A stretch of DNA of 24,259 nucleotides from a virus. Lineage: Duplodnaviria; Heunggongvirae; Uroviricota; Caudoviricetes. This document shows positions 15,235 to 24,020 of this stretch, piece after piece. Each line of letters begins with the position of its first letter. Within the stretch, counting starts at the first letter, position 1. The notes beneath the pieces are model-generated. The model did no database searches and had not been told where the DNA came from. It worked only from the letters and a program-made list of their open reading frames with translations. The translations under genes and the position numbers were made by a program. Location of the stretch: IMG/VR virus record IMGVR_UViG_2671180603_000002; one strand, written 5' to 3'.

Positions 15235-15852
15235 ATGACAGAGACAGAATCAGCGATTCTGGCGCACGCCCGGCGATGTGCTCCAGCGGAGTCGTGCGGC
15301 TTCGTGGTAAGAACGCCGGAGGGGGAAAGATATTTCCCCTGCGTGAATATCTCCGGTGAGCCGGAGGCGTATTTCCGTATGTCGCCGGAAGACTGGCTGC
15401 AGGCAGAGATGCAGGGTGAGATTGTGGCACTGGTCCACAGCCACCCCGGTGGTCTGCCCTGGCTGAGTGAGGCCGACCGGCGGCTGCAGGTGCAGAGTGA
15501 TTTGCCGTGGTGGCTGGTCTGCCGGGGGGCGATTCACAAGTTCCGCTGTGTGCCACATCTTACCGGGCGGCGCTTTGAGCACGGGGTGACGGACTGTTAC
15601 ACGCTGTTCCGGGATGCTTACCATCTGGCGGGGATTGAGATGCCGGATTTTCATCGTGAGGATGACTGGTGGCGTCACGGTCAGAATCTCTATCTGGATA
15701 ATCTGGAGGCCACAGGGCTGTATCAGGTGCCGTTGTCAGCGGCGCAGCCGGGCGATGTGCTGCTGTGCTGTTTTGGTTCATCGGTGCCGAATCATGCCGC
15801 CATTTACTGCAGTGGTGCTCTGGGAAATCGATCTGACAGAGGTCGGTGGTGA
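15235..15852 (+). CDS. K: Tail tip assembly protein K (allele 1), 3'-truncated at a rearrangement junction
   Basis: MTETESAILAHARRCAPAESCGFVV... matches lambda K (full ORF form) for 192 codons, including the JAMM/MPN motif HSHPGG...SEAD, up to ...NHAAIYC. At about 15811 the sequence switches to L-homologous DNA out of frame, giving a 13-codon junk tail and a stop at 15852. Confidence 0.75.
   Translation: MTETESAILAHARRCAPAESCGFVVRTPEGERYFPCVNISGEPEAYFRMSPEDWLQAEMQGEIVALVHSHPGGLPWLSEADRRLQVQSDLPWWLVCRGAIHKFRCVPHLTGRRFEHGVTDCYTLFRDAYHLAGIEMPDFHREDDWWRHGQNLYLDNLEATGLYQVPLSAAQPGDVLLCCFGSSVPNHAAIYCSGALGNRSDRGRW
15456..15810 (+). repeat. 355-bp direct repeat of the K allele-1 mid-region (second copy at 18039..18393, offset 2583 bp) flanking the first inserted block
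   Basis: K allele-1 codons ~73-192 occur both at the 3' end of the truncated K (15235..) and at the 5' end of the K fragment (18037..). They appear identical on inspection. Confidence 0.8.
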
Positions 15853-16450
15853 ACGTTATTTTTTCTGTAATGAGCAGAACGAAAAAGGTGAGCCGGTTAC
15901 CTGGCAGGGGCGGCAGTATCAGGCATACCCCATTCAGGGGACGGGATTTGAACTGAACGGCAAGGGCAGTGCTGCCCGTCCGACACTGACGGTTTCTAAC
16001 CTGCACGGAATGGTCACCGGGATGGCGGAAGACCTGCAGAGTCTGGTCGGCGGAACGGTGGTCAGGCGTAAGGTTTACGCCCGTTTTCTGGATGCGGTGA
16101 ACTTCGTCAACGGAAACAGCGACGCCGATCCGGAACAGGAGGTGATCAGCCGCTGGCGCATCGAGCAGTGCAGCGAACTGAGCGCGGTCAGTGCCTCTTT
16201 TGTGCTGGCCACACCAACGGAGACGGATGGCGCGGTTTTCCCGGGGCGTATCATGCTGGCGAATACCTGTATGTGGACTTACCGTTCTGATGAGTGTGGT
16301 TACACGGGCAGGGCAGTGGCTGACGAGTTCGACAAACCAACGACGGATATCCGGAAGGACAAATGCAGCAAGTGTATGCGCGGGTGTGAGTTGCGCAACA
16401 ATACCGGTAATTTCGGCGGTTTCCTTTCCATCAATAAACTTTCTCAGTAA
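15812..16450 (+). pseudogene. L: L-homologous fragment (allele 2), 5'-truncated: codons ~21-232 with no native start
   Basis: VVLWEIDLTEVGGERYFFCNEQNEKGEPVTWQGRQYQAYPIQGTGFELNGKGSAARPTLTVSNLHGMV...SINKLSQ is homologous to L 21-232 but differs at several residues from the full L at 14531. The frame is open upstream to a fortuitous ATG at 15614 (ORF 15614..16450); GTG codons at 15812 and 15815 could also initiate. Confidence 0.65.
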
Positions 16451-16454
16451 ATCC

Positions 16455-20994: not shown

Positions 20995-21533
20995 AAACGG
21001 GGGCTGAAGCCATCCGGGCACTGGCCACACAGCTCCCGGCGTTTCGTCAGAAACTGAGTGACGGCTGGTATCAGGTGCGCATTGCCGGGCGTGATGCAGG
21101 TGAAACCGAATTGTCTGCCCGTCTTAATGAGCCGCTGGCAAATGGTGCAGTGATCCACATAGTACCGCGTCTGGTGGGAGCTAAAAGTGGCGGTGTGTTT
21201 CAGGCGGTGCTGGGGGCGGCTGTTATGGCGGTTGCTATATGGATGCCGGGGGTAGGAATTATGGCGAGTAATCTGCTGTTTTCTCTCGGTGCCAGTATGA
21301 CGCTTGGCGGTGTTGCACAGATGCTGGCACCGAAAGCCAGAACTCCCCGTACACAGACAACGGATAACGGTAAGCAGAACACGTATTTCTCGTCACTGGA
21401 TAACATGGTTGCCCAGGGCAATGTTCTGCCCGTTCTGTACGGTGAAATGCGCGTGGGGTCACGTGTGGTTTCTCAGGAGATCAGCACGGCAGACGAAGGG
21501 GATGGTGGTCAGGTTGTGGTGATTGGTCGCTGA
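20892..21533 (+). CDS. I: Tail tip assembly protein I (allele 2), second copy
   Basis: Translation identical to 17096..17737. Confidence 0.88.
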   Translation: MAATHTLPLASPGMARICLYGDLQRFGRRIDLRVKTGAEAIRALATQLPAFRQKLSDGWYQVRIAGRDAGETELSARLNEPLANGAVIHIVPRLVGAKSGGVFQAVLGAAVMAVAIWMPGVGIMASNLLFSLGASMTLGGVAQMLAPKARTPRTQTTDNGKQNTYFSSLDNMVAQGNVLPVLYGEMRVGSRVVSQEISTADEGDGGQVVVIGR

Positions 21534-21593
21534 TGCAAAATGTTTTATGTGAAACCGCCTGCGGGCGGTTTTGTCGTTTATGGAGCGTGAGGA

Positions 21594-24020
21594 ATGGGTA
21601 AAGGCAGCAGTAAGGGGCATACCCCGCGCGAAGCGAAGGACAACCTGAAATCCACGCAGTTGCTGAGTGTGATTGATGCCATCAGCGAAGGGCCGGTTGA
21701 CGGTCCGGTGGATGGATTAAAAAGCGTGCTGCTGAACGGTACGCCGGTCCTGGACAGCGAGGGGAAGACAAACTTTTCCGGTGTTACGGTGGTGTTCCGT
21801 GCAGGTGAGCAGGAGCAGACACCGCCGGAGGGTTTTGAATCCTCCGGCTCCGAGACGGTGCTGGGTACGGAAGTGAAATATGACACGCCGATCACCCGGA
21901 CCATCACGTCGGCAAACATCGACCGTCTGCGCCTGACCTTCGGTGTGCAGGCACTGGTGGAAACCACCTCAAAGGGTGACCGGAATCCGTCGGAAGTCCG
22001 CCTGCTGGTTCAGATACAGCGTAACGGTGGCTGGGTGACGGAAAAAGACATCACCATTAAGGGCAAAACCACTTCGCAGTATCTGGCCTCGGTGGTGGTG
22101 GGTAACCTGCCGCCGCGCCCGTTTAATATCCGGATGCGCAGAATGACGCCGGACAGCACCACAGACCAGCTGCAGAACAAAACGCTCTGGTCGTCATACA
22201 CCGAAATCATCGATGTGAAACAGTGCTACCCGAACACGGCGCTGGTCGGCGTGCAGGTGGATTCAGAGCAGTTCGGTAACCAGCAGGTGAGTCGCAATTA
22301 TCATCTTCGCGGGCGCATTCTGCAGGTGCCGTCGAACTATAACCCGCAGACGCGGCAATACAGCGGTATCTGGGACGGAACGCTTAAGCCAGCATACAGC
22401 AACAACATGGCCTGGTGTCTGTGGGACATGCTCACTCATCCGCGCTACGGCATGGGGAAACGTCTTGGTGCGGCAGATGTGGACAAATGGGCGCTGTATG
22501 TCATCGGCCAGTACTGCGACCAGTCAGTGACGGACGGATTTGGCGGCACGGAGCCGCGCATCACCTGTAACTCTTACCTGACCACACAGCGTAAGGCGTG
22601 GGATGTTCTCAGTGATTTCTGCTCGGCGATGCGCTGTATGCCGGTATGGAACGGACAGATGCTGACGTTCGTGCAGGACCGACCGTCGGATAAGGTGTGG
22701 ACCTATAACCGCAGTAATGTGGTGATGCCGGACGATGGCGCGCCGTTCCGCTACAGCTTCAGCGCCCTGAAGGACCGCCATAATGCCGTTGAGGTGAACT
22801 GGATTGACCCGGATAACGGCTGGGAGACGGCGACAGAGCTTGTGGAGGATACGCAGGCCATTGTCCGTTACGGTCGTAACGTCACGAAGATGGATGCCTT
22901 TGGCTGTACCAGCCGGGGGCAGGCACACCGAGCCGGGCTGTGGCTGATTAAAACGGAACTGCTGGAAACGCAGACCGTGGACTTCAGCGTGGGCGCAGAA
23001 GGGCTTCGCCATGTACCGGGTGATGTCATTGAAATCTGCGATGATGATTATGCCGGTATCAGCACCGGTGGTCGCGTACTGGCGGTGAACAGCCAGACCC
23101 GGACGCTGACGCTCGACCGTGAAATCACGCTGCCGTCCTCCGGTACCACGCTGATAAGCCTGGTTGACGGAAGTGGCAATCCGGTCAGCGTGGAGGTCCA
23201 GTCCGTCACCGACGGCGTGAAGGTGAAAGTGAGCCGGGTTCCTGACGGCGTTGCAGAATACAGCGTGTGGGGGCTGAAGCTGCCGACGCTGCGCCAGCGT
23301 CTGTTCCGCTGCGTGAGTATCCGTGAGAACGACGACGGCACGTATGCCATCACCGCCGTGCAGCATGTGCCGGAAAAAGAGGCCATCGTGGATAACGGGG
23401 CACACTTTGACGGTGACCGGCGCGGCACGGTGAATGGTGTCACGCCGCCAGCGGTGCAGCATCTGACCGCCGAAGTCACCGCAGACAGCGGGGAATATCA
23501 GGTGCTGGCGCGATGGGACACGCCGAAGGTGGTGAAGGGTGTGAGCTTCCTGCTTCGCCTGACCGTGGCAGCGGACGACGGCAGTGAGCGGCTGGTCAGC
23601 ACAGCCAGGACGACGGAAACCACATACCGCTTCAGGCAGCTGGCGCTGGGGAATTACAGTCTGACAGTCCGGGCGGTAAATGCCCGGGGGCAGCAGGGCG
23701 ATCCGGCGTCGGTATCGTTCCGGATTGCGGCACCGGCAGCGCCTGTCACTATTGAACTGATACCGGGGTATTTTCAGATAACGGCGGTCCCGAAACTGGC
23801 TGTATATGACCCGACGGTGCAGTTTGAGTTCTGGTTTTCGGAAAAGCGGATTGCGGATATCAGGCAGGTTGAAACCAGCGCCCGCTATCTTGGCACGGCG
23901 CTGTACTGGATAGCCGCCAGTATCAATATCAAACCGGGCCATGATTATTACTTTTATATCCGCAGTGTGAACACCGTTGGCAAATCGGCATGTGGAGGCC
24001 ATCGGTCGGGTGAGCGATGA
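21594..24020 (+). CDS. J: Tail tip / central tail fiber protein J (host specificity): 805 lambda-like codons, then a reading-frame break
   Basis: Matches lambda gpJ from [24 protein letters not shown] through ...[17 protein letters not shown]. The frame is then lost near 23991 and stops at 24018-24020. Confidence 0.9.

Follow-up and report, generated by a model that had tools for sequence, protein, structure and literature searches.

The tandem array of tail-tip genes described here is very probably an artefact of scaffolding and gap closing in a short-read Shigella sonnei draft with at least two lambdoid prophages: it appears to have been stitched together from two related prophages of one isolate, and is thus a product of assembly rather than a biological rearrangement. 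The stretch of DNA analysed, which we call the window, is the complete 24,259-bp contig CXDK01000078.1 of draft GCA_001252175.1. The real genome most likely holds one normal module of each of two allelic lineages, A and B, at separate loci.

The anatomy of the array was worked out by self-BLAST, mapping to lambda and base-level checks, which bear out, with small corrections, the tandem L-K-I-J mosaic reported in a first-pass annotation, including its tally of four segments from K, three from I and three from J. The contig consists of four pieces in which A and B alternate, and each new piece starts upstream of the end of the preceding one, giving three backward jumps in all (genes and pieces all lie on the plus strand). 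The last gene ahead of the chain in the ORF list is an intact allele A copy of L (14531–15229, 232 aa, PF05100), in a region 96% identical to lambda H-M-L-K and 99.97% identical to a colinear module in another assembly (L012). Codons 1–192 of K, allele A, follow (15235–15810) and close the first scaffolded piece on its right; their last 66 nt lie inside a 122-nt stretch in which A and B are identical. The second piece, of allele B (15812–18036), comprises L codons 21–232, K (16455–17198), I (17135–17737) and J codons 1–80, and is 87% identical to lambda and 99.7% identical to positions 864–3088 of a colinear S. sonnei contig (L010). Allele A returns in the third piece (18038–19669) with K codons ~74–247, I (18459–19130) and J codons 1–160, after which come 178 nt of B-like J, codons 161–220 (19671–19848). 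The last piece, again of allele B (19839–24259; 99.8% identity to L010 1095–3980), contains L codons 98–232, K (20251–20994), I (20892–21533) and a J that begins at 21594 and extends as far as the contig does, frameshifted by the loss of 2 bp near 23990. The start of this last L fragment, previously placed at codon 108, is in fact at codon 98–101. The K duplication, given earlier as 355 bp, measures 356 bp at 100% identity (15455–15810 against 18038–18393); the B copies at 16043–18036 and 19839–21832 have 2 mismatches in 1,994 bp (99.9% identity by self-BLAST), and the N-terminal part of J is present in two 658-bp copies that are ~90% alike.

Taken singly, the segments are unremarkable. Their homology to lambda L, K, I and J is confirmed at 87–96% DNA identity, with the Pfam families Phage_tail_L, NLPC_P60/Prok-JAB, Lambda_tail_I and GpJ domains represented (PF05100, PF00877/PF14464, PF06805, PF24801 and others), and every one is an ordinary piece of the lambda M-L-K-I-J block, to which allele A is 96% and allele B 87–91% identical; the lambda block is colinear, whereas the order in the window is broken by the three backward jumps. 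The proposal of two parental lineages holds, and both exist elsewhere as colinear modules: the A module matches 9876–15809 at 99.97% identity and then continues normally, and the B module is 99.7–99.8% identical to both B copies, such that every joined piece belongs to a normal colinear L-K-I-J locus in another assembly (L012 for A, L010 for B). The allele A copy of I sits in the context of a colinear A module in 24 of the 25 contigs read. The A and B tail-tip modules are ~88–90% identical to each other and share long exact stretches, and where A and B copies overlap in the window they differ by 10–12%, with the changes of allele located at the joins. Within pieces there is some finer mixing. 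The J of the third piece, earlier assigned to allele 1, is A-like only up to ~19298 and B-like from 19335 on, the piece as a whole showing 3 mismatches to the A module through 19334 and 28 beyond, and the B piece at 15812–18036 has the A-type base at two positions, 16775 and 16781. Among the copies, two K sites and three J sites show reciprocal allele swaps; this is the outcome that would be expected of a consensus built from mixed reads, although natural gene conversion could also produce it.

The public record bears on how the pieces were joined. Over 7798–24259, the window and CXDK01000078.1 are identical at all but three bases (comparison with public records L003, L004 and L011): at positions 15811, 18037 and 19670, each a single base assigned to neither strand, the deposited sequence reads N where the window reads A. 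Junctions 1 (15811) and 2 (18037) therefore have no sequence support: they are scaffold joins, each marked by one N, across which no sequence was read, and the Ns suggest that no reads span them. The same Ns rule out taking the A at the junctions as an untemplated insertion or as the base of a third allele; position 15811 is G in both parental lineages. The N at 19670 marks a colinear join within J, in register with the allele B J on both sides. By chance, the A at 18037, present only in the window, creates the ATG of a 174-aa ORF (18037–18561).

Junction 3 (19839–19848, plus strand) has no N. It is a suffix/prefix merge at an exact 10-nt overlap, CTGGTCGGCG, common to J codon ~217–220 and L codon 98–101. 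Identity of this length is at chance level, as J shares four 10-mers with H-M-L against 2.5 expected after shuffling, and 10 nt is the default minimum overlap for gap closing in GapFiller (Boetzer & Pirovano, 2012, PMC3446322). A sibling contig (L008) has an N-marked break at 10660 in J codon 220, the same J position as junction 3. Of the junctions first estimated at about 15811, 18036 and 19845, then, the first stands as given, the second moves to 18037 and the third becomes the interval 19839–19848.

A search of 5,426 complete genomes of E. coli, a set that does not include Shigella, recovered none of the three junctions, and the whole window matched only colinear prophages there, ~5 kb shorter. 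The exact strings of junctions 2 and 3 were not found in viral contigs, nor was that of junction 3 in GTDB representative genomes or JGI metagenomes. The recorded junction-spanning proteins occur on no contig other than CXDK01000078.1 in an index of 153 billion genes, and a lookup returned no entry for the 205-aa K chimera. Two candidates for a J-K adjacency (H99 and H100) turned out to be ordinary remnants of deletion, their jumps running forward. Chains of the same kind occur in sibling assemblies: two other S. sonnei drafts of neighbouring accession series, CXEU01000085.1 (L008) and CXAQ01000042.1 (L009), contain different tandem H-M-L-K-I-J chains, each with three backward jumps and a single N at every one. 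Sibling S. sonnei assemblies carry both A-like and B modules.

How such a chain could arise can be outlined. A de Bruijn assembler would have ended its contigs where the paralogous modules share sequence, and read pairs falling within the shared stretches would have tied A pieces to B pieces. Greedy extension of the ends with pooled reads may then have pushed the pieces past one another, a step-by-step origin that we infer for the overlaps of 1.2–2.4 kb; gaps that could not be closed would have stayed as one N, and at one pair of ends a chance 10-nt identity would have met the merge rule and fused them. Mis-threading within the de Bruijn graph itself was considered and dropped in favour of joins made by the scaffolder and gap filler, because overlaps of 0–10 nt are too short for a path in a k-mer graph. 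All breakpoints do fall within A/B-identical stretches of at least 27 nt, but stretches of this kind make up ~55% of the region, which makes this a weak test (~0.03 by chance). The Velvet, SSPACE and GapFiller pipeline used at the Sanger Institute includes greedy steps that are able, according to its authors, to cause false joins (Page et al., 2016, PMC5320598). The portion of the accession list available to us does not contain CXDK, but this prefix sits between S. sonnei prefixes beginning CXA and CXF that are listed for the pipeline, and by accession series and species CXDK01000078.1 may belong to the same set. The window resembles the false joins of SSPACE and GapFiller (PMC5320598, PMC3446322) in coming from a short-read S. 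sonnei draft of the same ENA accession series, in its single-N joins of pieces that overlap rather than abut, in one merge whose overlap is exactly the default minimum of 10 nt, and in the presence of the same kind of chain among sibling assemblies.

The first-pass annotation had left the choice between assembly mis-threading of two related prophages and template switching or illegitimate recombination. The N joins, the 10-nt merge, the colinear parents and the sibling chains favour the former, and it is very improbable that two lambdoid prophages resident together switched templates serially, or recombined illegitimately, to produce a genuine tandem mosaic in this isolate. Substrates for such events do exist, since an E. 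coli genome as a rule carries lambdoid tail modules at several places (median 3), and junction 3, resolved and free of N, has 10 nt of microhomology of a kind also typical of real illegitimate recombination. Yet two of the three junctions are not sequence-resolved, there being no sequence behind the Ns of junctions 1 and 2, and if the Sanger pipeline was used, 120 rounds of gap filling left a 1-nt gap open. We can reason that the same gene order would formally follow from three tandem duplications nested in series, but the overlapping copies are 10–12% apart where one duplication should have left them identical or altered by later mutation alone, and a version in which gene conversion followed the three nested duplications is ruled out by the coincidence of allele boundaries with the joins. 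Three independent illegitimate events inside 4 kb would be improbable; a single contig has these junctions, related isolates have not inherited them, and the clonal siblings show different N-linked chains. We would give equally little credence to a physically real 5-kb heteroallelic array of tail-tip genes, formed by multi-step template switching between two resident prophages, in which the Ns are just uncalled bases.

Natural lambdoid mosaics swap one allele for another and keep the gene order. The window is like them in its two related lineages and in the short allele patches exchanged between copies; however, natural mosaicism leaves no overlapping duplicate fragments joined by N. A real rearrangement may also draw support from E. 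coli FY26 (NZ_CP101741.1, L015), where a similar chain of seven L/K/I/J-derived segments, of different alleles and with six backward jumps, one of its breaks being near J codon 223, stands in a genome labelled complete and without Ns, unlike CXDK01000078.1. The junction between J codon ~199 and K codon ~18, the sole FY26 junction tested, was found in that genome only. A mixed sample, with two strains or phage variants, or chimeric fragments formed in vitro and joined by the assembler, is less probable still. It would account for two alleles at 88–90% identity in one contig and for allele swaps at fine scale, but A-like and B modules are both present in sibling S. sonnei assemblies as well, which makes co-residence in one genome the simpler source; library chimeras would be rare molecules that should not fix three ordered joins, and the Ns indicate scaffolding rather than chimeric reads.

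The practical consequences lie mainly in the databases. The replacement of N by A during preparation of the window hid the sole mark by which such chains can be identified, and they will recur as matches whenever draft assemblies are scanned for odd gene arrangements. The chimeric and truncated tip proteins that had been predicted do exist in the deposited annotation, though not, it would seem, in the organism: chimeric ORFs of CXDK01000078.1, among them a J-L fusion (CSQ80681.1) and an 83-aa J stub (CSQ80675.1), are listed by public protein databases as though genuine, and a homology search returned many singleton fusions of J with L, tape-measure, Lom, I, terminase or lysozyme domains. Were the array true after all, the similar array of FY26 would be a hint that such a process recurs in the tail modules of lambdoid phages. 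As it is, the array is very probably no real feature of the organism and its biological weight is small, the isolate most likely carrying two ordinary lambdoid prophages.

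The order of the tail-tip genes described in the first-pass annotation is correctly observed; the array itself is very probably not real biology. In the ORF list, the window encodes a lambda-like left arm from Nu1 to J; its tail-tip array is made of four overlapping pieces drawn alternately from two allelic lineages of L-K-I-J (A and B) and joined at three backward jumps, two of them by an N and the third by a 10-nt merge. Self-comparison and mapping to lambda bear out this anatomy: an A piece extends up to 15810 (K codon 192; 96% identity to lambda) and is followed by a B piece at 15812-18036 (L codon 21 to J codon 80; 87% identity to lambda), a second A piece at 18038-19848 (K codon ~74 to J codon 220), and a second B piece from 19839 (L codon 98) to the window end, within J. 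The start of this last L fragment, previously placed at codon 108, is corrected to codon 98-101. At the base level, the allele-A copies of K show no differences over 356 bp and the allele-B copies differ by 2 mismatches in 1,994 positions. In the 'allele A' J, A-type sequence ends at about 19298, and from 19335 the gene is B-type. Near 23990, the allele-B J lacks 2 bp (GGCATTTGTGG to GGCA--TGTGG) compared with three other J genes, and there are a few substitutions nearby. The deletion shifts the frame so that the ORF ends at 24020 (808 aa); it may be a genuine pseudogene lesion or an assembly error.

The public record of the contig, CXDK01000078.1, compared over window positions 7798-24259 through three loci that together span this interval (L003, L004 and L011), differs from the window at three positions only, 15811, 18037 and 19670: each is N in the record and A in the window. 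The first two of these, junctions 1 and 2, are one-base scaffold placeholders that were never read across, and the pieces on either side share 1.2 and 1.4 kb of overlapping paralogous sequence; the third N marks a colinear join within J. As the record has N at 15811, the A in the window matches neither parent, both of which have G. Preparation of the window converted N to A at all three positions, so that the scaffold joins lost their mark and an apparent ATG arose at 18037.

At junction 3 (19839-19848), J and L share exactly CTGGTCGGCG, and the flanking bases differ on either side in each parent. J, over its first 1.5 kb, has four 10-mers in common with 1.5 kb of H-M-L, where shuffled J averages 2.5, so a rule that merges on any 10 nt would find such identity by chance. 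In a sibling S. sonnei draft (L008, CXEU01000085.1), a piece ends one base beyond the junction-3 position in J, and an N comes next (L008 10660); this fits a recurrent contig end due to repeat structure rather than a recombination point.

By exact-protein lookup, the J-L fusion ORF is CSQ80681.1, a one-member cluster, encoded on CXDK01000078.1 of Shigella sonnei assembly GCA_001252175.1, a contig that the window covers in full, and junction-spanning proteins on record are confined to this contig. In the accessible part of the Sanger assembly-pipeline supplement, S. sonnei assemblies carry the prefixes CWW*, CWZ*, CXA*, CXF* and CXG*; CXDK falls within that accession series and is itself not among the entries listed there (Page et al., 2016; PMC5320598). 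The pipeline runs Velvet, then SSPACE for 16 rounds, lowering the number of linking read pairs to five, and then GapFiller for 120 rounds; its authors state of these greedy tools that they 'can lead to false joins' (Page et al., 2016). GapFiller's default is to close a gap once the overlap between both extensions reaches 10 nt (Boetzer and Pirovano, 2012; PMC3446322). It seems likely that contigs broke at sequence common to A and B, that A and B pieces were then linked through read pairs in the shared stretches, and that repeated greedy extension pushed the piece ends past one another; gaps that would not close would have been retained as one N, and one chance overlap would have been merged as junction 3.

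Intact parents are found elsewhere. A colinear A-module contig (L012) matches window 9876-15809 at 99.97% identity, with K (247 aa), I (223 aa) and J (1,165 aa) intact and in colinear order. Its gene context recurs in 24 of the 25 contigs read that carry the A-type I; the remaining one, L013, keeps the L-K-I-J order. An S. sonnei contig with colinear M-L-K-I-J (L010) matches both allele-B copies at 99.7-99.8%, and a second sibling draft (L009, CXAQ01000042.1) holds A-like and B modules, both colinear. Separate A and B modules are what the refutation criterion of the first-pass annotation predicts, and they are seen here in related assemblies (L010, L012 and L009). When allele-specific bases were scored against L010 and L012, reciprocal swaps between A and B copies appeared at three sites in J and two in K. 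The 'allele A' J has B-type bases at 19739, 19745 and 19793, and the B copy of J has A-type bases at the corresponding sites 22142, 22148 and 22196; A-type bases also occur at 16775 and 16781, in K of the first B copy. These may reflect a consensus from pooled reads of two prophages; as natural gene conversion could also yield them, we count them as supporting evidence only.

It is very improbable that the isolate carries a genuine template-switch array, even though junction 3 is resolved, with microhomology, and a similar private chain exists in E. coli FY26 (L015, NZ_CP101741.1 4146884-4157708), which is labelled complete and has no Ns. That chain jumps backward six times and is made up of seven L/K/I/J-derived segments of different alleles. 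The FY26 junction tested was found in the FY26 genome only; one of the chain's breaks lies near J codon 223, and a 63-nt exact repeat occurs at L015 positions 3526-3588 and 5509-5571. Template switching in the isolate presupposes three illegitimate events within 4 kb, together with allele boundaries that coincide exactly with the joins and a gap filler unable to close 1-nt gaps despite spanning reads. Probes of 300 nt over each junction had no full-length match among 5,426 complete E. coli genomes, in which whole-window matches were only to prophages about 5 kb shorter; the exact strings of junctions 2 and 3 were absent from viral contigs, and that of junction 3 also from GTDB representative genomes and JGI metagenomes. 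Less probable still, by a small margin, is an origin in a mixed sample or in library chimeras.

A protein search of public collections returned many singleton proteins in which the J N-terminal domain is fused to L, the tape-measure C-terminus, Lom, I, terminase or lysozyme domains, most of them from draft contigs. A 2.4-kb contig of an unrelated assembly (L014, RWZD01000682.1) encodes a different J-L fusion of 332 aa (J ~1-233 and L ~133-232), and J-to-L backward joins thus recur in drafts. Some J fusions may be real deletion remnants, as suggested by P0086, an ORF matching both Phage_tail_L and the J N-terminal family, which is present in an NCBI assembly and in the Logan assembly of run SRR7530087 and sits in a remnant whose tape-measure gene is truncated and which retains a short fragment of Lom.

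Both sibling drafts are also chained. L008 strings together H-M-L-K-I-J pieces from three lineages and jumps backward at 6695, 10660 and 17731; L009 is built likewise, jumping backward at 9186, 10645 and 12519. A single N stands at each of the six jumps. Chimeras occur among their annotated proteins, for example one of 491 aa that fuses J to tape-measure sequence, and L proteins 341 and 289 aa long. The chains of L008, L009 and the window all differ from one another. Shigella sonnei is a clonal species, and such differences would fit a pipeline effect on a common repeat family rather than an inherited rearrangement.
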